This document shows positions 5,931 through 61,700 of a stretch of DNA of 64,000 bases, piece after piece. The first letter of the stretch is position 1. Every line of letters begins with the position of its first letter. Under the pieces are notes generated by a model. It saw only the letters and a program-made list of their open reading frames with translations, did not search any database and was not told the origin of the DNA. The position numbers were made by a program, and so were the translations under genes. Source of the DNA: Podospora anserina (Eukaryota); NCBI GenBank assembly GCA_017654855.1, contig CM030332.1:5270001-5334000 (forward strand), written 5' to 3'.

Positions 5931-8595
5931 ATGCCTTTACCTGACACACGCTTTTTACTTCGGCCTTTCTCCATCGTCATCTATCCGATCTGGACGCTAC
6001 TGGCCTTTTTCTACCGCCACTCCCCCCTCCGTTTCCTTTCCTCGACTCTCCAGCCCCTTTTCGGACTTCGCAACACCACTGACATTGACCCCGAGACACC
6101 CGAGCCAACATCTACTACCAACATGTCGGCCAAGAAGAAAATCGCCATCATGACCTCGGGAGGTGACTCCCCAGGCATGAACGGCGTGGTGCGCGCCTGT
6201 GTGCGCATGGCCATCCACATGGGCTGTGACGCCTATTGCATCTACGAAGGGTACGAGGGCTTGGTCCGTGGCGGTGACCTCATCCGGAAGATGAATTGGT
6301 ACGATGTCCGCGGGTGGCTCTCCGAGGGCGGTACTCTCATTGGAACCGCCCGGTGCATGGCCTTTTTCGAACGCGCTGGTCGCCTTGCTGCTGCCAAGAA
6401 CATGATTCTACACGGCATTGACGCCCTCATCATCTGCGGAGGAGATGGTTCCCTGACTGGCGCGGATCGATTCCGTGCCGAATGGCCCTCGCTGCTCGAC
6501 GAACTCGCTGCCAATGGCGAATTTACCACCCAGGAGCTTCAGCCATTCAGACATCTCAACATTGTCGGTCTCGTCGGTTCCATTGACAACGATCTCTCTG
6601 GTACAGATGCCACTATTGGTTGCTACTCTGCGCTTGCAAGAATCTGCTATGCTGTCGATCTCATCGAGGCGACAGCCTCTTCCCATTCCCGCGCTTTCGT
6701 CGTCGAGGTCATGGGGCGGCATTGTGGCTGGCTTGCTTTGATGGCCGGTGTTGCGACGGGTGCCGATTTCATATTTATTCCGGAGAAACCTAGGGAAGAC
6801 AACTGGAGAGAGGAAATGTGCAGCATCGTTGAGCATGTAAGTACACCCTCTTCTGGGACGTCATTCTGTTCTGGCTGAAGCTAAACGAGTCAACGACAGC
6901 ATCGCAAAATCGGCAAGCGGAAAACGATCGTGATCATTGCCGAGGGAGCACTCGACAGAGAGGGGAACAAGATCACCCCGGCAATGGTCAAGGATCTTCT
7001 TGCGGACAAGGACGGCCTCGGACTCGACACCAGAATCACGACACTGGGCCATGTTCAAAGAGGCGGGACAGCTGTTGCTTACGACCGTATGCTGGCGACA
7101 CTGCAAGGTGTTGAAGCCGTCAAGGCTGTTCTCGAGGCCACCCCTGAGACAAAGACCTGCGTCATTGCCATCACCGAGAACAAGATTGTCAGAAAGCCCC
7201 TTATGGATGCGGTACAAGACACCAAGAAGGTGGCCAAGGCAATCGAACGGCAGGACTTTGAGGAGGCCATGGGTCTACGGGACGCCGAGTTCTCGGAGCA
7301 ATACAAGTCGTTCATGATGACTACGGCGGTCCAAGTAGACAAGGAGCTGTTGCTGCCAGAGAAGGAAGTACGGCTCCCCTCTCTCCACTCGCAGGTTTCC
7401 TGGGTGCTGACAGACTTTACAGAGAATGAGGATTGGGTTCATCAATGTCGGCGCGCCCGCCGGCGGTATGAACGCTGCAGTGCGCGCTGGTGTAGCTTAC
7501 TGCTTGTCCCGAGGGCACGAGCCGATGGCGATTTACAACGGCTTCGCCGGATTTGCCCGGCATCATGCCGACAACCCTGGAGCTGTCCGACCCTTCAACT
7601 GGCTTGAGGTGGACGGATGGGCCAGCAAAGGTGGCTCGGAAATTGGAACGAACCGCGAGCTTCCAGGCGAGTCCGGCATGGAGACCATTGCCAACTTGAT
7701 TGAGCAGTACAAGTTTGACGCTTTGTTCCTCATTGGCGGTTTCGAAGCTTTCCATGCTGTCTCTCAGTTGCGCAAGGCTAGGGATCAGTATCCATCCCTG
7801 TGCATCCCCATGACATTACTCCCCGCCACCATCTCCAACAATGTGCCAGGGACAGAATACTCGCTCGGTTCGGATACTTGTCTGAACGAACTGGTCGAGT
7901 ATTGCGACAAGATCAAGCAGTCTGCCTCGGCTACCCGGAGACGTGTCTTTGTCATTGAGACGCAAGGTGGACGCTCTGGCTACGTTGCGACGCTCGGTGG
8001 TCTTGGTGTTGGTGCGTCGGCCGTGTACACCCCGGAAGAGGGTGTCAGCCTCGATATGCTCGCTGCGGACGTGCGCCATCTCAAAAACGTCTTCGCCCAC
8101 GACCAGGGCCAGAGCCGTGCCGGTCGCCTCATCTTGATCAACGAGAAGGCTTCCAAGGTGTACAATGCCAAGTTGATTGCCGACATCCTCCGCGAAGAGT
8201 CACATGGCAGGTTCGAGAGTCGCGAGGGTATCCCTGGTCACATGCAGCAGGGTGGTGTACCGTCGCCCATGGACAGGTGCCGGGCTGTCAGGCTGGCCAT
8301 ACGGTGTATCCAGCACCTGGAGCAGTTTGGCCGCAACGTGCACAACAGGGTCAAGGTGGACCCCATGAGCACAACGGTTATTGGCATCAAGGGCGCGAGC
8401 GTGGTCTTTACGCCTGTTAAGCAGGTTGAGGAGGAGGAGACGGACTGGCCCAACAGACGGCCAAAGGCGGCGTACTGGCTGGGCATGAAGGAGATTGTCG
8501 ACATTCTGGGTGGCCGTCCCAAGTATGAGCTCCCCGAGTCGGACTTGACTGGTATCAAGGCGAAGGATGTCAAGCGTGGGATTGTGCCGCCTTGA
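5931..8595 (+). CDS. pfk1: ATP-dependent 6-phosphofructokinase (3 exons; alternative start at ATG 6123)
   Basis: Exons 5931(or 6123)-6836, 6900-7367, 7423-8595 with GT-AG introns. Motifs [51 protein letters not shown]; duplicated regulatory half [22 protein letters not shown]. Confidence 0.97.
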
Positions 8596-9160
8596 ATGGG
8601 ATGGGACTGAAGAGTCGAAACAGGAAGTCTTTTGACGGTTGTTTCTCTCCGTGACTTGGGCTGTCATTGCTGCAATGATGATTCATCAAGTACCACTTTC
8701 CCTTGTTGTCGTCTAGCATCACCGACGAAGGGATCGGTAAATTCATGCAGGAAGGGAAGGGGGAAAATAGACAAGGACAAAGGCTCGGGACTGGTTGGTG
8801 TGAGGGGGGGTTATAGGATGGATGAGTGGGCTTTAGTTAGGGCAAAAAACACCATCATCTCTACCACTACCTTGGCACCGATACAAGAATAAAAAAGGAA
8901 GCTGTAAAGTGCAACAATAGACTCTGGAACGCATAGCTCCTCAATATGCAGTTATATGTGTGGTTGCTTGGCGAGAGACAGCACTCTTGGAAATGGTATC
9001 ATATTTGTTGAGAAACAATCTGGCAACACTTCTGTACAATAACCCAGCTAAATTGCCACCCTCCGACCGACTCCTTGATTGATTTGAGCGAGTGAACGAG
9101 CGAACAAAAGCCATTCTCGTTTCCAAAATGGAAATACACACCGATGCACACAATCTCTCT

Positions 9161-15417: not shown

Positions 15418-16389
15418 GCCCATATTCTTTTTTTTTTTTTTTTTTGCTTGCTTTTCCCATGCCTGCTACCTTTTAGCGTAGCAGCAGCTTCGGGAATTTA
15501 GCGCCACGAAGGCGCACTGACCTCTGTGGGGGATCTCAGGGACCCAGGCACCCAGGATCCCCAGTCGATTCCGTGTCGATCTCAGCCGCAAGGGAAGTTC
15601 GTCTGGGGGGTTCACGGGTGCGGGGGTAAGCGCTGTAACCCTGGATCGCGGTTTTCAGTCTGGGGGTTTAGTTCATCTGAATGATGGGTTTGGATGTGTA
15701 TATTTCGTCTCGTCTGTTTGCCACCCTCAACTCAAAGATCAGGGTTTTATGATCAGAGTCTCTTTTTTTTCTTCTTTTTTTTTTTTTTTGCGCGGTGATC
15801 GTTGCCTTTTTTATGCCTTCATGCACCCTTTCGCCAGTCTGATTTGGCATAGGTAAGCCACGGCTCATGCAGCTCTTCGTTGTCGGCTTGCAGCAGCATC
15901 CTGCTTTTCTGGAGGATGCATCTGACATGGCCACTGACGGGAGATAGCACCAGCCATCTATCTGCCACCAGTCACCCGACAGACAGCGCCAATGACGGAA
16001 GAGAAGCGCTGCATGTTTTGATCTGAAGCAATTCATGGACTGGCGCCCCCTGCATCAGATAGACGCAAGGCCGTATCTCAGCTGGCAACTGAACCTGTTC
16101 GGGAAGCCGACAGATGGGCAGCATGAACCCACAGTCCGGTCTCCGAGTCTCGTCGTCATATCTCCATTGTGACCTGTCTCAATCTGGAATCTTGCTTTCT
16201 TTTCCACGTCGTGTGTGGTGTGTGGTGCAAAAGGTGCTTCCCGACGGCAGGCACGGTTGCATTGTATCGACCACCTCATGATGAGTGCCCATCAAGACTT
16301 ATACGAGACGTGGTCCAGGGCCAGGACCACGTAGCTCTCGCCTCTCCTACTCCCATCGCCGACCACCGCTTGGCTCCCCTGCGACTTCC

Positions 16390-42462: not shown

Positions 42463-43186
42463 AGGGTAATGATAATATGGGGGGAACCATGGGCGTGGGA
42501 TTTTCTTTTTCGGGGAGTTATGGTTTTGGGTCGGGGTTTTGTGTACTTATTTCTGCTTATAGAAAGCTTGTTTGTACTTGCTTCGGAGGATCAAGACTTG
42601 TTCGACACTTGCGGAGAATGTTGCAATGTGGTCGAGGGCAACGGTCCTCTCGATTGTTTGTTTGCTTTCTCATCACCACAACCACAGCATCGTACATCAA
42701 CGGCCAAAAGAAAATTAAGACACCCACCCACCCGTCAGTGACTTCCAAAGGTACCAACTATCCAGCACAAAATGGCAAAAAATCAAAAAGCTCACCAAGC
42801 CACCTAGGGTGGACTCGATTACGAAAACCCCCAAAGGTTTTACCCCAAGAAAGACTCAAACGGACACCCCTCTTGGTGACTCTTTGGTCCTTACCCAAGT
42901 CGGTGCCGCAACTCCCACACACTGCTAAGCCATTTGGCAAGAGCAGAGCCAGGAGTTTCGTTCGGTGAAAAGAGCAGTGGTTGACCTAATATGTAAACCG
43001 TGCATTCGTGGGGTTGCTCTGCTTTTGTTCGCCACTTTCCCACGACCTCATCTTCTCTCCTCGCAGCTAGCTGTCTTCTGTGTGGCCCCTGCTTGAACAA
43101 ACGGTATTCAACATTACAAGAAGGCAACTCCCCTCTTCTATCTTCAATATGTCAACAAGGGTCTAGCCCACAAACATATCATAAAT

Positions 43187-44512
43187 CTACAACTTCGACT
43201 CCTTCGCTTCCTTTTCAGGCGGCTGCAACCTCACAAGACCCTGCCACACAGCGTTAGCATTCGTCACGTCACTCTCGAAGCAGAAAAAGACTCACCTCCT
43301 GCACACAAGTAGCCAACAACGTCCCGTCCTTTGCAAAAATCTTCTGCATCACCACCCCCCTCCCATCCCCCGCCCACGGACTCTCCATCTCATTCATCAT
43401 CCACTCATCCGCCTTGACCCTCTTCGGCTCATGGAAATAAATCGTATGGTCCAAGCTCACCATCATGCCCAACGTCGGTCGTCCAGCCATATCCCTCGGA
43501 TCATCACCCATCCCCTCCCACTGATGCAGCGTCCTGACCTTCTCCTGCATGTCGGGCTTCAGCTTGTCAAAGTCTTCTGGTTTGAACTGGGGGAACCTCC
43601 ACAGGTTATGAAGTCTAGTTACGGTGCCGATGAAGTAGCTGTCGCTGATGTAGGCCAACGCCTCGAGATGGGCGGCAGTGCCACCGGTGATTTTCCCTCT
43701 TGACCGCAGCCATTGGCGTGTCTTTTTATCGCGGGGATTGGTGGACGTGCCGCTGGGGGAAATGATTTGGATCTGTGTTCCTTGGAAGGGGCCTTGGGTC
43801 ATGGAGGGGGGTTCACCGTCGTAGTCGTCGGGCGGGGGCTGGACGGGGAGTTTGGTGACTGGATCGATGGGCATAGCGCTGGAGTGGGAGACTTGTGTTC
43901 CCGGGGCACCGGAGGAGCCATCCTTGACAAAGGAGATGGTGGTGGTGAAGATGCAGCGGCCCCGTTGGCGGGCCTGGACGGTGCGAGTTGCGAAGCTGCG
44001 GCCGTCGCGGACCTGCTCAACGTGGAAGAGGATGGGGAGGTTGGAGGCGCCGGCGAGGAGGAAGTAACAGTGGCAGGAGTGGGGGAGGAAGTCGTCGGCT
44101 ACGGTGCGCTGAGCGGCGGCGAGGCACATGGCGATTACGGCACCGCCGTAAATGCCACGAGCTCCCGGCGGGTGCCAGGGTTTGCGGGCATTGGTGAAGA
44201 TGTTCTGGGGGCGGAGGTTAGCATTTTGGATGGCTCGTATTGGTGGTTCTGTGAGGTGGAGAAGGATTGGGTGTGAGAATCACGGCTTATGGCACATGAG
44301 GCCATCCGGGAAAGATATCCCGGTTGGAATGATTCTCATGAGACCCAATGGAGGCGGTGAGATTGAGATATCCATGACTTGCCGTCGGCAAGTCAGCCAC
44401 TCTCACTTACAGGACCTAACACAGCCAACTCTGTCACTTCCAAGACATTTTCAATGGGCGCCTTGTTGGGGTCGGGAGGTGGCGGCCTGAGCAATGTTGC
44501 GCGGTTCTCCAT
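43187..44512 (-). CDS. tes1: Peroxisomal acyl-CoA thioesterase II (TesB/ACOT8 family), 3 exons, PTS1 SKL
   Basis: Exons 44512-44411, 44204-43296, 43240-43187. RGIYGGAV, HSCHCYFL, RDGRSFATRTV, AYISD, SLDHTIYFH, CVQEGLVR; spliced C-terminus ends KESKL-stop. Confidence 0.93.
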
Positions 44513-44771
44513 GGTGCGGGTGGCCCGGATATCTTGTCGCGCTCCTATATATATAACGAAATACCACCAAGTGAGTGATTGCACAAGACTGGTGGTGATT
44601 CGGAGGACGGTGCGGCGTGCAAAACAGTCAAAAAGACACAGGCAAGAGAAAACAGCAGGCAATGAGATAAGGCGAATGGTGATATTACAGGACAGGAAAC
44701 AGTGTTTTCCTTTTAAAAGAACAAGCGCGGCTTGGAGCTGATGGGTTGGAGATAATCCCAACGTTGCTTTT

Positions 44772-44787
44772 ACCGAGGCTCCTCGGT
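44772..44787. promoter_or_regulatory. Inverted pair of FarA/FarB-type CCTCGG sites upstream of tes1
   Basis: ACCGAGG-CT-CCTCGGT perfect inverted repeat about 260 bp upstream of the tes1 ATG. Confidence 0.6.
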
Positions 44788-45655
44788 GCTGGCTGCCGTT
44801 AGAGAGAAGTTCGGTCGGTAACAGCCGTCGCAGCCCTGAGGTGGCACGCCCAGGCCTGTGTCATTGCCAACCCTGCCAGTGGAGGAACCCCCGAACCTGG
44901 TCCTGGACCCTGGGGTTGTTTAGTTGAATACCGATAGGGGTACTTTGATAGAAGGGTACTGAACATGGATGGTCAGTGTCAGTGTGTGAATCTCATCTTA
45001 AATCGAGTCTGAGAGCTTTTTTACTTTTCTAGAACGCAATTTCAAATCTCTATTAAATTGAAGCAGTTCCACCTCACGTCCAAAGTGCTATTTATTCTCA
45101 TATGAGTTCATGTTCTTGATGGCTGTGGCTCAAAATGCTGCCTACAAGCATATTCAATAAAGATGCTATTTTGGGCCATGTCGTTTTGAAACCCCAGGCG
45201 CAGGTTTCAGCGTCTCACCCCGCTAAACTCCACTGCCAACAGCACACTCGGCCGCCGGGCCAACCTGTCTGACAGGGTGACAGCTCGAGAACACGTGAAG
45301 GGGGGCGGGGCAACAGAATTCCAGACGGACAACGTCATTTGGCATCGTGGGTCAGGGATGCAGTGAAATGCGGCCATGCTGGTCAAAAGCAACAACTCCG
45401 CTCTCCACTCCAGTCCACCTCCACCCCCTATCTACGACTTTATCTCTGCGAGAGAGTATTCGTAGCTGTGTATTGTTTGAAACCAATAATAGTCACCGCC
45501 TCCCTACCGACGGTGCGACTCCGAGCTCGGTGCACCACGGGCAGACGGACGAGCAACAGCCCATCAACTCGGAAGTGCCTCATTAGCCGCCCGACCGCAC
45601 GAACACAACGGTTGCTAGACTTGGGAAGCTCAGAGCTAGAACCCAACCTACAGTC

Positions 45656-48600
45656 ATGTCGGACGCGGGGGAGAGGTAAGAAAGACAGATAGCTCCTTTG
45701 CTAAGAAACCCTAATCGAAATCCATCCTCGTTGCTCCGAGCTCCGAGCTCCATAGCTTTGCTGGACAACCTGCTGACGACGGGTGTTTGTTATCTCTAGT
45801 TCGCATCGACGAACGAAATCCTCTGCCCTTTCACTCCTGAGACGCAAAGCTACTGGCGGTGCCGGTGACGACAACATGTCTACAGCTTCGGTCGAGGACA
45901 CTGGCGCAGCGAGCACCAGTCTTGCCGGCGATTCGACTACCGCAACATCCCACGCATCTCTTACCAACGCCCACCAACATTCCAGGGGCCACAGCTCCAA
46001 GCTCTCAGTCTCTGGGAGCACCATGGGCCGTACACCATCACACAATGCCCCTTCGGTTAGCGGGGCTAAGTCTCCCAATCCGCTGGACAAGGGCGCCTCC
46101 CTTGAGTCATCCGTCAGAAAGTTCCGCATCGTTGAAGCTCTCCGCAACGGTGACACTGCCTCCATCTCCAAAGCCATCCGTGAAAGCGCCGAAGGGGGTC
46201 CCCGCACGAGCACCTCATCCTTCAACACAACAACCGGCCCCCTCGAAGATACCACAATACTTCACCTCGCCATCCAGTGTGCCGAGCAGCCCGTTGTTGA
46301 GTACGTTCTGTCTGACGGCGCTGGTTCTCTTGATATCAATGCTCGGGACAAGGATGGAAATACACCCCTTCATATCGCGGCAGCTCAGGGCCGTAGCCAC
46401 GTGGTTGGACTCCTTCTAGCAAACAAGGAGATCAACGATGCCATCGCCAATAACCAGGGCCGCCTTCCAATCGATCTTGCCCGCAATCCCGAAATCTTCC
46501 AGCAGCTGCAGCTCTCGAGATCTCTGTTTGCTGAAAACAAGATCAGGCAAGTTCAGGATCTCATTCTCCACGGCGAGTTCAAAGTCTTGGAGCAGGTGTT
46601 GGAGGAACCTCGTTTCAAGACAGTTTTGGATATCAACAGTACCGAATTTGCTTCGGACCCAGTTACAGTCCAGGCTGGGGGCACCCTCTTGCACGAAGCC
46701 GCACGCGCCAAAAACACTCGTCTAATTCAAGTTTTGCTTCTGCATGGCGCCGACCCCTTCCGCCGGGACCGCAAGGGCAAGCTCCCGCAAGATGTTACCA
46801 AGGACGAGATCACACGTGCCATGCTGAAGAAGTCACCAGCTGCCGTAGCGGCGCAAAGGGGGATCCAAGAGAAGGCCGTCCTGGGGTCTGCTGCCCAAGG
46901 CGTTATCAACGCGACTCCTGGTGATCCGCTTGCTGGCCGAGAGGCCCGTGAAATGAAAGGCTACCTCAAGAAGTGGACCAACTATAGAAAGGGGTATCAG
47001 CTGCGGTGGTTTGTTCTGGAGGACGGCGTGTTGAGCTACTACAAGCACCAAGATGATGCAGGCTCAGCCTGCCGTGGTGCTATCAACATGCGCATCGCCA
47101 AGCTTCACATGAGCGCTGATGAGAAGACCAAGTTTGAGATCATCGGGAAGTCATCGGTCAAGTACACACTCAAGGCGAACCACGAAGTCGAAGCTAAGCG
47201 CTGGTTCTGGGCCCTCAACAACTCGATTCAGTGGACGAAAGACCAGGCTAAGGAGGAAGAGAGACAAAAGGCCCATAACGCGGAGTTGCTGAAGCAGGCC
47301 AAAGCCGAGATTTCGGGTACTAGTATCTCTGAGCCACCTAGCGAGAACGCGAGCTACATTGAGCCCCGCGGCAGCATCCAGCTTTCACGGATGCACTCTT
47401 CCGGCAAGTCTCACAAGAGCGGACTTCATGGGGCTGGCACTGTGGACAGCCATGATGATGACGAATTTGCTGACGCGGCGACGGAGGCTGGCAAGACTGA
47501 TCATCACGGCGAAGGTGATTATGAAGATGATGACTATGGTGAGGGTTCGAGTGGGCAGGATGCTCCGCCAGTGAATAAGGATGCTTTCAACATCACTGCC
47601 CAGTCGGCTAAGCTGCAGCTCGATACCATGGCACACGTCACAGCCGCACTACTTCAGGAGGCGAGCAAGAATCCCAGCCTGACTCTGGGCGATACTAAGG
47701 CCTCGCAAGCTCTGTCGACTTATGACGCCGCCATCCGCTCGCTTACTGGGCTTATTGGTGACCTTTTGCGCATCTCAAAGGACCGTGATGCCTACTGGCA
47801 GTATCGCCTTGACCGCGAAAGTGAGATGCGCCGGATGTGGGAAGACAGCATGGCCCAGGTAGCCAAGGAGCAAGAGTCCCTTGAGGCTCGCGTCAGTGAG
47901 GCTGAGGCCAAGAGAAAAGCTACCAAGCGCATCCTCAAACAGGCTGTTGAGACCGGCATTCTTGACGAGAGCCAGACACTACCACCACCTGCTGCTTCCA
48001 CTTCTGCTGCTGCTACTCCAGCTATCGCTGCCACCACCGCTCCTCAGGATAGCACTCAGGTGGAGACGGCGGCAGCAGACTCTGTGAGCGCAAAGTCCCC
48101 CGCCCTGGGAGGCCTTTCGAGACGTGAGACGGTGATTACCCAGATCGCCGACATCTCGGATTCAGAGTCAGACGAGGAGGAGTTCTTCGATGCAGTTGAT
48201 GCCGGCCAGGTCGAAGTATCGCAGTTGCCACCGTCCGAGATCGCGGAAGCCAAGAGTGAAAACCAGATCGTTGTGTCGGGTGAGAACGACATCAGCGATG
48301 CCTTCAAGGGGTACGAAAATGGCATTCGAACCCGTCTGAAGATGGAAGCAGATAATAGGCCCAAGATTTCACTCTGGGTAAGTTTCATGCGGCAGGCAGC
48401 ATTCGAAACTTTCCAGCTAACTGTCTGTAGGGTATTCTGAAATCTATGATCGGAAAGGATATGACCAAAATGACCCTCCCCGTATCTTTCAACGAACCTA
48501 CCTCTCTTCTGTACCGCTGCGGCGAGGACATGGAGTATGCCGACCTTTTGGATCTTGCGGCCGACCGCTCTGATTCGATTGAGCGTCTGCTCTACGTTTC

Positions 48601-58700: not shown

Positions 58701-61700
58701 AGGTGCTTGAGAGTGAAAGATCGCTTGCGCTGGATAAGGAGGAGATCTTCAAGCGGCTGCAGATGAGGGAGGCGGAGCTGGAGGACAAATTGGCTGGTGC
58801 TCTGGATGATCAGGAGAGATTGGAGGACCAGCTTGATAGTCTTCTTGACGCCAAGAAGCGGGCCGAGGAGGATGTGAACAGCTATCGTGCTCAGCTGGAG
58901 CAGGCAGCTGGTCTCATTTCTAGGCTGGAGGCTGAGAAATCGGAGCTTGCGGCAAAGGTGGCTGATCTGGAGAAGTCCATTGACGAGATCGCCAAGAAGC
59001 AGTCTGAACGCAGCGCACAGGAGGCGGCTTTGGAGGATGAGGTCAAGATGCTGCAGAGCCAGCTCTCACTCAAGGATAGGAAGGTGCGGGATATGGAGAG
59101 CAAGCTTCTCAAGGCTGATCAGGATCTCGATATTAAGCTGCGGACTGTCGAAAAGGAGCTTCAGACTTCACGAACCAAGAACTCGCAGCTCAGTGCTGAG
59201 AACCGGGAGATTCAACAGCAACTTGCGCAATTGTCCAAGACTTCTACCGACTATGAAGACTTGGTGCGCAAGAAGGAGAGCGAGCTGGCGTTGCTTCGTT
59301 CGGACAATAAGAAGTACGAAATGGAGCGGCGTAGTCTTGAAGATCAGCGCAAGACCCTCAGCGCCGAGAGGGAAAAGACCGCCGAGCGTCTTCGTGACAT
59401 TCAGGCGGAACTCACTGCGGTGAGGGCTCAACAAGACCAGCTCAAGCGAGAGGCTGCAGATGCCAACAAGCTTCTCCAGGCTCGGCTCTCGGAGGATGCC
59501 CAGGCTGATGAGAACCGTCAACTTCTCGAGGCACAGGTCAAGGACTTGAAGGATGAACTTTACAAGGTTCAAATGGAACTTAGTAGAGAACGTCAGTCCC
59601 GCGACGATGTTGCCCTTCTTGGCGAGCACAAATACAATACCCTGAAGGAGGAGTACGACCACCTTAATGAGTCCAAGATCACGATTGAGAAGGAGCTCTA
59701 TGCTCAGCAGGACACTCTTCGCCGTATGATGGAGACGCGGGCTGCTGCTGAGAAGGAGCGCGATGAAGCCAGGCAAGAAATCCGAGCTCTTCGTGTGGCC
59801 AAGACGCAGGCTGAGGAAGCTCGCCGGGAAGCAGAGATTATCGGTGAAAGGGCTGCTTCCAAGATTGCCCGTGAAAAGGAGGAGAGCCTGCGCAAGGCTC
59901 TGGAGTCTGCCAGCAACAGGGTGAACTCCTTGGAGGAGCAAGTCGCCGACCTGACCTACCAGATTGAGGATCTCAACAAGGTGATTCTTGAGTCTGGAGA
60001 GTTTGGACTGAAGAATGACCAGGCCAAGGAGCGGTTGGAACGCGAGCTTGTTACTGTCAAGGGTCGGTTGGCTGCTTCGGAAAATGACAACAAGGCTTTG
60101 CTCAATAAGCTGCAACAGAAGGGGCTAGAGATTGCGAGGTCTAGCTCGAGGGCGAGCGAGGCTTCCAGAGGCCAGATCATGGGTCTTCAGCGGGAAAAGG
60201 CCAGGCTGGAGGAGCAGAACGCGAAGCTCAATAAGCAGCTTGGTGACTCGCAGGTTACCATCGCGTCTTTGGAGAAGAGACTGGAGAAGCTGCAGCTCAG
60301 CTTGGAGGATCTCAACCATGAGGTGGCCAGGGAGGTGCAGAACAGTCGCGCTGCGGAAAAGGCTTCGTCGAGTGCCACCGCGCAACTTGCTGAGGCGAAT
60401 CGGACTATTGAGTCTGAACGGCAGCTCCGCACACACGCTCAGGGCACAGTCCGCACTTTACAGCAGACACTGGATTCTCGCGACATTGAGCTTGCTGATC
60501 TCCGCGGACAATTGTTGGATGCGCTCAAGATTGTTGACCCTGAGTTTGTGCCTACGATTCAGTCTGAGGGCGGTGCCGACAAGTTCCTCAGCAAGAATCT
60601 TGATCTGGCTCGCAAGATTGAGGAGCTCCAGCAGAATCTCCGGGTCCAGACTGCAGCTCGCGCTAACGCCGAGGCTCATGTTGTAGAGTTGAGAGCAGCT
60701 AGGGCTGAGTCTCCGACTAGAACTCGCCATGGGGAATTCAACCCTAACGAACCCGTCTTTGAGCCTGGCTCACCGGAACAGAAGCGGTCCAGACCTAACG
60801 GCCGTCACTATTCCGGTGCATCTACTCCTCCTCGCCGCTTCGCCACGGTCGAGACTGACCATCTCGACTCGGTCAAGTCTGACAAGACAGCTGACATTCT
60901 CAGCTTCAACAACCGCCAGGACCTCAAGGCTGAGGTTGAGGAGCTGCAAAACCAGCTGCAGATTGCGCACATGCAGAACAGGCACTTGCAGAGCCAGCTT
61001 GAGCGGTCTGTGCCGGATCCCCAGGCTACTGTTGATGAGAGTGGCCGTGTTCAAAAGCTGGAGCAGATGAACAGCAAGCTGCACCATATGCTTGATGAGT
61101 CTTCGCAGAAGGTGTCTGCGCTTGAAAAGGCGCTTCATGCCGGTGAGCTTTCTCTCCGCGACATCCAGACTAGATCTCACGAGGAGATTCTGGATCTGTT
61201 GCATAGCCAAGAGGACTCCCGCCGCCGTCTCCTGTCTGATCACAATGATGCCATTGGGGAATTGGCCCATATCAAGGAGCACTTTGAGAGACTCAGACAC
61301 GACAGGGCCAAGATCGAACTCGATCTCCGCGATGCCAAGTCCGACCTTCAGGAGATGTCACTTGCGCGCGAGCAGGAAGCCGCCAGCCGAAACCAGCTGC
61401 TGCAGGAGTTTGCTGACTTGCAGATCCGCTTGGACTCTGAGACCAGCAAACTGGCTGATGTTGCTGCCAACTTGCAGTTGTACAAGGGTCGTGCGGATGA
61501 GTACTTTGCCAAACTTGAGAACGCCGAGATTGCTGTGCTCAAGGCTACCAGGGCCGAGCAGTTTGCCAAGGCGCAAGCAAAGGATGCGGAGGATGCTTGT
61601 GCTGAGATGATGTCTGAAAGGAAGAGGCTCGACGGCACCATTGAGGATCTTCAGCTCCAGAATCAACGCTTGGAGGAGAAGATCGAAGACATGTCGACCG

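Follow-up and report, generated by a model that had tools for sequence, protein, structure and literature searches.

A self-pairing insert, probably a tolerated fold-back, in the first intron of a tes1-like thioesterase gene of Podospora anserina

Here we report that the first intron of a tes1-like acyl-coenzyme A (acyl-CoA) thioesterase gene of Podospora anserina is a real intron that is both unusually long and unusually well folded, as an earlier note on this DNA (the original prediction) had proposed: contig joints fix its borders, and its 206 nucleotides (nt) fold far better than their composition leads one to expect (z −4.88). The gene lies on the minus strand of the 64,000-nt stretch analysed here (the window), positions 5,270,001–5,334,000 of CM030332.1 (GCA_017654855.1); all coordinates are those of the window, and positions within intron 1 are counted from the donor (position 1 is 44410) along the minus strand. 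The folded core is absent from the introns that six related genes carry at the same place, and unspliced intron-1 RNA was assembled in all four RNA-type sequencing runs. The explanation that we favour, and rate a little better than even, is that an old short intron gained a young self-pairing insert of ~136 nt, which is tolerated, slows splicing and is no conserved regulatory RNA. The narrower statement, that the insert is a tolerated fold-back and not a conserved regulatory RNA, is probably correct.

The gene, whose ATG occupies 44512–44510, comprises three exons and two introns:

44411–44512, minus strand: coding part of exon 1, 34 codons, MENRATLL...LAVLGP; the end of this peptide and the intron position are also found in relatives
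44205–44410, minus strand: intron 1, 206 nt, GT..AG, phase 0 after ...LGP, with RNA-type contig joints
44217–44223, minus strand (intron 188–194): branch-point motif UGCUAAC, branch A 13 nt from the acceptor, unpaired probability 0.64–0.99
43296–44204, minus strand: exon 2, 303 codons, acyl-CoA thioesterase double hot-dog domains
43241–43295, minus strand: intron 2, 55 nt, unstructured (fold z +1.1), joint in four of four runs; the internal comparison
43187–43240, minus strand: exon 3, ending ...KESKL before the stop

The exon 2 protein matched the Pfam families PF13622 (E 4.4e-25), PF20789 (E 5.4e-37) and PF02551 (E 9.6e-24), and both the N- and C-terminal 4HBT_3 hot-dog domains of acyl-CoA thioesterase II (TesB/Tes1 type) are present. 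The C-terminal -SKL, which we take to be a classical peroxisomal targeting signal type 1, fits a peroxisomal thioesterase of the Tes1/Pte1 type. With these domains and this C terminus, the label tes1 given in the original prediction is sound.

Splicing was read over 42900–45000 from the contigs of four public runs (X15–X18) from four studies, out of six runs taken to be RNA. Their RNA nature is a guess, none being on record as RNA, but the contigs carry exact intron joints, and the runs therefore contain spliced RNA. In X15 and X16, contigs run straight from 44204 into 44411, and the sequence left out has the plus-strand ends CT..AC, which the gene strand reads as GT..AG; in X18, a contig starting at 44411 carries 17 loose letters that match the start of exon 2; and the joint of intron 2 is present in all four runs. 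No alternative joint occurs in the contigs of the four runs across intron 1, and the predicted borders, 44410 to 44205, are confirmed exactly. A reading of intron 1 as a stwintron was rejected: it has no internal set of branch point and acceptor, and no contig joins it differently. The length of 45–65 nt that had been given for the commonest introns here is only roughly supported by intron 2 (55 nt) and by the best-flanked candidates (45–65 nt) of a rule-based finder; this finder is noisy, its 117 candidates over the window being mostly false positives in GC-rich DNA and only the few with long open flanks being credible.

Alongside the spliced forms, unspliced intron-1 sequence attached to exon was present in the contigs of all four runs, with contigs spanning the whole intron in X15 and X17. 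The X15 contig (44175–44440) has a depth of 162 against 304 for a 60-nt spliced junction contig, and the X16 contig (44185–44345) has 3.9 against 33 spliced, these rough k-mer depths being per-contig means of unknown strand that can neither rank the forms nor give their ratio. The X17 contig (44175–44785; depth 9.5) has no assembled spliced intron-1 counterpart, and that of X18 (43401–44295) reaches 91 nt into the intron. Contig cover upstream of 44817 is absent in three of the four runs, and the unspliced contigs are therefore unlikely to be background DNA. Unspliced intron-2 contigs were found in none of the four runs, which is no proof that this 55-nt intron is spliced efficiently, as assemblers drop rare variants. 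We therefore state only that unspliced intron-1 RNA was assembled in four runs of four and unspliced intron-2 RNA in none. The signals of intron 1 (GUAAGU donor, UGCUAAC branch motif, CAG acceptor) are consensus, so weak signals do not explain its retention. A retained intron 1 would add VSESG, five intronic codons, and then a stop.

The sense strand of intron 1 folds at −63 kcal/mol, compared with −44.7 ± 3.8 kcal/mol in 200 dinucleotide shuffles (z −4.88), and not one shuffle does as well; in a separate scripted run with 100 dinucleotide shuffles the count was again zero (z −4.37). The intron thus came through the shuffle comparison that the original prediction had named as a check of the fold. 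It also lies beyond all of 199 random 206-nt windows drawn from the 64 kb, whose z-scores (30 shuffles each) have a mean of −0.07, a standard deviation of 1.14 and a minimum of −4.07, six of them at or below −3. Judged by absolute energy, the intron does not stand out: 37% of 3190 windows fold as stably or more so, and its residual z in a GC regression over these windows is −0.64, because the DNA is GC-rich and the sense intron G-poor. The signal appears only relative to the intron's own G-poor composition, and shuffle z-scores were therefore preferred to absolute energies. An ordinary long intron in which complementary words had met by accident would agree with the unremarkable absolute energy and with the six background windows at z −3 or lower. 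However, neither set of shuffles nor any background window equals the intron, and four separate near-perfect helices crowd into 136 nt, which makes accident a very improbable explanation. The sense strand outscores the antisense strand (z −4.9 versus −2.3), which favours the gene-strand RNA over mere symmetry of the DNA as the source of the signal. Other strong folders in the window are 8447–8652 (minus strand), 15451–15656 (minus strand) and 60771–60976 (plus strand), with z −3.7 to −4.1; several of the strong-folding windows are coding, 15451–15656 is apparently non-coding, and none shares sequence with intron 1.

The predicted fold consists of the following parts:

44397–44406, minus strand (intron 5–14): 5′ strand of the closing helix, GUGAGAGUGG, overlapping donor +5/+6 and pairing with 152–160
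44375–44395, minus strand (intron 16–36): hairpin 1, a perfect palindrome of 9–10 base pairs (bp), pair probabilities 0.78–1.00
44357–44362, minus strand (intron 49–54): UCUCAC, an early partner of the donor-proximal GUGAGA in the minimum-energy pairing of the nascent 56-nt RNA
44266–44349, minus strand (intron 62–145): hairpin 2 domain, 7-bp and 10-bp stems around two small hairpins, pair probabilities 0.68–1.00, most of them at least 0.9
44251–44259, minus strand (intron 152–160): 3′ strand of the closing helix, CCACCUCAC, inside the segment that aligns to the relative L006

The stems of hairpin 2 are 62–68/139–145 and 73–82/128–137, and its inner hairpins are 88–93/100–105 and 106–122. Most pairs of hairpin 1, of the hairpin 2 stems and of the inner hairpin 88–93/100–105 have probabilities of ~0.9–1.0, and the core helices keep theirs whether the intron is folded alone, between 60-nt exon flanks or from the ATG onward. 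Most of the predicted anatomy was recovered: the perfect palindrome with 10-nt arms at 44375–44395 lies where it had been placed, 15 nt from the donor, and occurs only once in the window. The 7-bp and 9-bp arms pairing 44266–82 with 44330–49 were found too, most of their pairs having a probability of at least 0.9. The inner CCGGGA/TCCCGG hairpin also exists, but in the minimum-energy fold it coexists with the neighbouring short helix, with which it had been supposed to compete. The 3′ 46 nt of the intron are unpaired, and the intron-only fold leaves branch A and the last 12 nt largely free, as had been claimed.

At the 5′ splice site, the closing helix pairs GUGAG-A-GUGG (5–14) with CCACCUCAC (152–160) over 9 bp with one bulge (duplex energy −11.8 kcal/mol), at a probability of 0.90 in the intron alone and 0.44–0.56 between 60-nt exon flanks. 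Donor positions +5 to +9 have an unpaired probability of at most 0.2 in every context tested, and +1 to +4 remain largely unpaired when the intron is folded alone; opening −3 to +8 costs 4.4 (intron alone) to 9.2 (with flanks) kcal/mol of ensemble energy. In nascent RNAs of at least 56 nt, +7 to +9 are paired at nearly all lengths, the exception being +8 at 100 nt (30 nt exon). The GUGAGA region has three alternative partners, at positions 49–54, 133–138 and 156–160. The proposed overlap of the fold with the 5′ splice site therefore holds from donor +5 onward, but with another partner than the one named: in the full-length intron this is 152–160 (0.90) and not 49–54 (~0). The proposed stem of GTGAGA (44357–62) and TCTCAC (44401–06) is present and forms in the nascent 56-nt RNA, but its probability at equilibrium is ~0.

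Relatives were collected by scanning metagenome contigs with the exon-2 protein, which gave ten loci (L001–L010), eight of them clear orthologues with 57–80% identity. Seven of these extend upstream beyond the matched region; the eighth, L005, breaks off within the intron and duplicates the 3′ end of L003. Six of the seven, 67–80% identical in protein, have an intron placed identically, between the codons for ...LGP and N-I-F. These introns measure 66, 105, 60, 83, 73 and 98 nt, and all six are unstructured (fold z +1.13, −0.17, +0.50, −0.17, +0.15 and −0.68). The most distant relative, L008 (57% identity), has no intron there, its codons ...LGPDVFTNAR being contiguous (L008:1200–1400). Comparison with the relatives' introns divides intron 1 into two parts:

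44237–44261, minus strand (intron 150–174): ancestral-looking segment, aligning to positions 14–37 of the 73-nt L006 intron
44265–44396, minus strand (intron 15–146): approximate lineage-specific insert, borders uncertain by a few nt, unlike the six orthologous introns

In local alignment, the first segment is identical to the L006 intron at 21 of 25 positions with one gap, a score reached by none of 300 shuffles; the match to the L007 intron is weaker (p 0.047). The core 15–146 has no similarity to any of the six orthologous introns in local alignments with shuffled controls (p 0.10–0.67), and a MAFFT alignment of the seven introns was uninformative (31% column identity). The simplest history suggested by these comparisons is an ancestral intron of ~70 nt that received ~136 nt in the lineage of this organism, and the 3′ strand of the closing helix would then belong to the old part. 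A reading as a conserved regulatory RNA is not supported, as all six relatives that have the intron lack the folded core, and with it any conservation from which covariation could be read. Within the relatives, the closely related introns L007:1903–2000 and L006:1928–2000 differ by ~25 nt, and the extra ~25 nt of L007 are self-complementary (GCATGG/CCATGC and a short tandem repeat), a second, independent self-pairing insertion; the L007 intron as a whole is not significantly structured (z −0.68).

The insert may have originated by local inverted duplication or template switching, or as a small fold-back element. One template-switching event can create a perfect stem, as the available part of PMC8794818 has it, and template-switch hairpins resemble the insert in that near-perfect stems appear suddenly in one lineage without intermediates (excerpts of PMC8794818 and PMC10710096); they are a candidate for its origin only. 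A multi-copy mobile element that landed in the intron, be it a miniature inverted-repeat transposable element (MITE), a fold-back transposon or an introner-like element, would also bring in nested, almost perfect inverted repeats in one lineage, the stems being its terminal or subterminal repeats, and the accessible text of PMC8469720 describes fungal introns that have proliferated and bear long terminal inverted repeats. However, neither the remaining 63.8 kb of the window nor L001–L010 contained a second copy, the best match being 17 nt (E 0.15), and by eye the borders of hairpins 1 and 2 bear no target-site duplication, only the 3-nt coincidences TGG and CCT. The inverted repeats stop short of the intron ends, and the intron position is old and common to six of seven relatives, not new and lineage-specific as for an introner. 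The 17–20-nt arms of hairpin 2 could pass for terminal inverted repeats, but no repeat extends across the full insert. Among bacterial and archaeal contigs (596 Gb), the 21-nt palindrome matched four and the 20-nt hairpin 2 arm two contigs of bacterial metagenome-assembled genomes, over at most 26 nt, without extension and at about the chance level. We consider a mobile element unlikely, if deserving of some weight. The small fold-back remnant of the original prediction remains viable and is close to the explanation we favour. A Helitron end was rejected, as no CTRR follows the hairpin by eye.

Symmetrical (stw)introns and introner-like elements (PMC8469720, PMC9024468, PMC12403724, each as excerpted) share with intron 1 a strong internal symmetry, predicted double-stranded RNA and a lineage-restricted occurrence. 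Symmetrical stwintrons, as portrayed in the available portion of PMC8469720, are multi-copy, sit at new positions and have 45–55-nt terminal inverted repeats and a nested donor. Intron 1, by contrast, has an old position, is single copy so far and leaves its 3′ 46 nt unpaired.

The palindrome could instead act as DNA, a perfect 21-bp site for a dimeric transcription factor or part of a first-intron enhancer, with the RNA fold incidental. It is perfect, unique in the window and placed in a first intron, ~120 bp downstream of the ATG. Against such a role, a palindrome of this kind is expected by chance ~0.2 times per 64 kb, it covers only 21 of the ~136 structured nt, no matching motif could be named, and the sense strand folds better relative to its shuffles than the antisense strand. 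Of all the alternatives we give this one the least credence.

Filamentous fungi carry intronic thiamine pyrophosphate (TPP) riboswitches, which are like intron 1 in being structured intron RNA that could control splice-site use. The original prediction saw no TPP core, and cmscan matched neither TPP nor any other Rfam family in intron 1: over 43900–44700 on both strands, 4227 families at E up to 10 gave four weak hits, none inside the intron and all far below gathering scores. Intron 1 thus differs from TPP riboswitches in matching no such family in or near it and in its lack of conservation. The ligand-, protein- or temperature-responsive element that had been proposed finds no support, as nothing points to a dedicated sensor and the core is missing from the orthologous introns; a dedicated sensor function is presumably absent. 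The broader claim of a splicing-control element stands to the extent that unspliced transcripts in all four runs fit slowed or controlled splicing, and does not extend to a dedicated sensor.

A regulated version of such control would make the insert a species-specific splicing attenuator, in which several interchangeable CUCAC partners mask the donor-proximal GUGAGA, a temperature, protein or CoA/acyl-CoA signal sets retention, and thioesterase output is adjusted through retention and the premature stop. Whatever the folding context, the region of the 5′ splice site is paired, and it has three alternative partners; retention brings a stop after five codons; the apparent unspliced share differs between runs and studies (~35% in X15, ~11% in X16), although contig depths cannot measure ratios; and the tes1 promoter carries a Far-type CCTCGG pair, which places the gene in a regulated pathway. 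The absence of the core from six of six orthologous introns, the lack of an Rfam family and of any sign of a ligand pocket, and the probable ordinariness of CUCAC-like words in C-rich fungal introns speak against it, and we regard it as rather unlikely. More doubtful still is the specific form in which the insert is a newly evolved bistable attenuator that passes GUGAGA among its three CUCAC partners, so that a temperature or lipid-metabolic signal decides between spliced and retained-and-degraded tes1 pre-mRNA. If an attenuator were nevertheless present, a regulatory intron structure would have arisen at a single stroke, through the insertion of self-complementary sequence.

Intron-hosted small nucleolar RNAs (snoRNAs) are common in fungi, and the stable hairpins within this expressed intron could house one, or could give a Dicer-dependent microRNA-like RNA (milRNA) from hairpin 2. 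However, no Rfam family matches inside the intron at E up to 10, and neither an ordered C/D box pair nor an H/ACA layout is visible by eye. Hairpin 1 has no pocket, hairpin 2 has a bulged 17-bp stem with a branched loop, and relatives lack the core; a small non-coding RNA is accordingly a very long shot.

Returning to the tolerated insert, we propose the following mechanism. A short unstructured intron at a conserved position would have gained ~136 nt of self-complementary sequence in this lineage, the RNA of which would fold into two units, a perfect 9–10-bp hairpin and a three-way domain on a 17-bp stem. The 9-bp closing helix (5–14/152–160) would tie off the insert and remove 156 of the 206 nt from the linear path, shrinking the distance from donor to branch A from 192 to 4 + 32 = 36 nt plus the helix end. 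This would fall within the range of ordinary introns here, for which we counted by eye ~40 nt in intron 2 and ~45–70 nt in the introns of L003, L004 and L006. Even with the closing helix open, hairpins 1 and 2 would cut the 192 nt to ~87 nt. The structure may in this way make the extra length tolerable, and the spliceosome would still excise intron 1 exactly. At the same time, the closing helix and its earlier, co-transcriptional partner 49–54 would occupy donor +5 onward, so that the U1 small nuclear ribonucleoprotein competes with structure; splicing would be slower than that of the 55-nt intron 2, unspliced RNA would accumulate and, with its stop after five intronic codons, would yield no enzyme. 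On this model, pairing at the 5′ splice site causes the retention of intron 1.

Pre-mRNA hairpins that sequester the 5′ splice site inhibit splicing in yeast model introns. Intron 1 is like them in that its predicted pairing covers +5 onward and unspliced RNA is present, and unlike them in that it leaves part of the U1 target free; an effect on splicing is what the model supposes. The closest functional analogue is provided by the zipper stems of long Saccharomyces cerevisiae introns (RPS17B, RPL7B and RPL28; PMC12350175 and PMC12311795, both in excerpt). According to the available text of PMC12350175, stems that shorten the path from 5′ splice site to branch point, multi-way junctions included, are common in the long intron class and poorly conserved in sequence between species. 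Set against the positional rules given in that text, the predicted 9-bp, one-bulge helix 5–14/152–160 (probability 0.56–0.90) qualifies as a stem, and the 33 nt from position 160 to branch A at 193 agree with the branch-point spacing. It lies too close to the 5′ splice site, beginning at +5, with only its inner 4 bp beginning at +11, and the total linker is 36 nt with the full helix or 47 nt with the inner 4 bp only, where 42–85 nt is given. As it departs from two positional rules, the closing helix, as modelled, is not a canonical zipper stem. It should compete with U1 and not dock beside it, its host is a filamentous-type fungus with introns of ~55 nt, and the fold is a prediction. Zipper stems themselves are not always enhancers, as disruption of that of RPL28 lowered retention (reported in the same portion of PMC12350175). 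Among the matches listed by a literature search, no paper dealt with structured introns that are retained in filamentous fungi, from which we do not claim that none exists.

Several points weigh against the tolerated-insert explanation. As to the fold, besides its ordinary absolute energy, a palindrome with arms of 10 nt or longer is expected ~0.2 times per window and arose in 4 of 20 Markov simulations, the antisense strand of the intron reaches only z −2.34, and the closing helix drops to a probability of 0.56 once exon flanks are included. By yeast criteria this helix is too near the 5′ splice site to coexist with the A complex, so that the shortening may rest on the inner helices and a path of ~87 nt. 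As to the history, the alignment to L006 is a single 25-nt segment, and the intron of L001, the closest relative by protein (80%), is not similar anywhere; the choice between insertion here and loss elsewhere therefore rests on parsimony over six introns; near-perfect stems could also mean selection. As to retention, in addition to the stated limits of contig depths and of assembly, a long intron would show pre-mRNA in total-RNA libraries anyway, and the four runs are merely guessed to be RNA, though their spliced joints show RNA.

Around the gene, an inverted pair CCGAGG-NN-CCTCGG that occurs nowhere else in the window occupies 44773–44786; the tes1 ATG follows ~262 nt downstream, and the RNA contigs have their 5′ ends nearby. 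The Far/CTF1 fatty-acid regulators bind the motif CCTCGG (PMC5068947, in its available part), and the tes1-like gene is therefore probably induced by fatty acids, as far as its promoter sequence tells. The 5′ ends of the contigs vary by run (44714 in X16, 44785 in X17, 44634 in X18 and on to ~45035 in X15) and may reflect an alternative upstream start or an overlapping transcript. One base of the 5′ untranslated region (44571) is absent from all four RNA-type runs, a strain difference or an assembly error. The divergent neighbour at 45777–48440 (plus strand), a long open frame of 887 amino acids from stop to stop in which ankyrin-like and PH-like regions were seen by eye in the sequence, shares a 1.3-kb intergenic region with the tes1-like gene.

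Collectively, these observations open no long-standing question, and nothing yet points to a new class of RNA regulator. They provide a natural comparison of one intron with and without a large structured insert: 60–105 unstructured nt in relatives, and 206 nt here, 156 of them in the folded domain. If the proposed explanation is true, a fungus with very short introns would put up with an abrupt gain in intron length only because the added sequence folds away, and the cost would be slower splicing of a peroxisomal lipid-metabolism gene.

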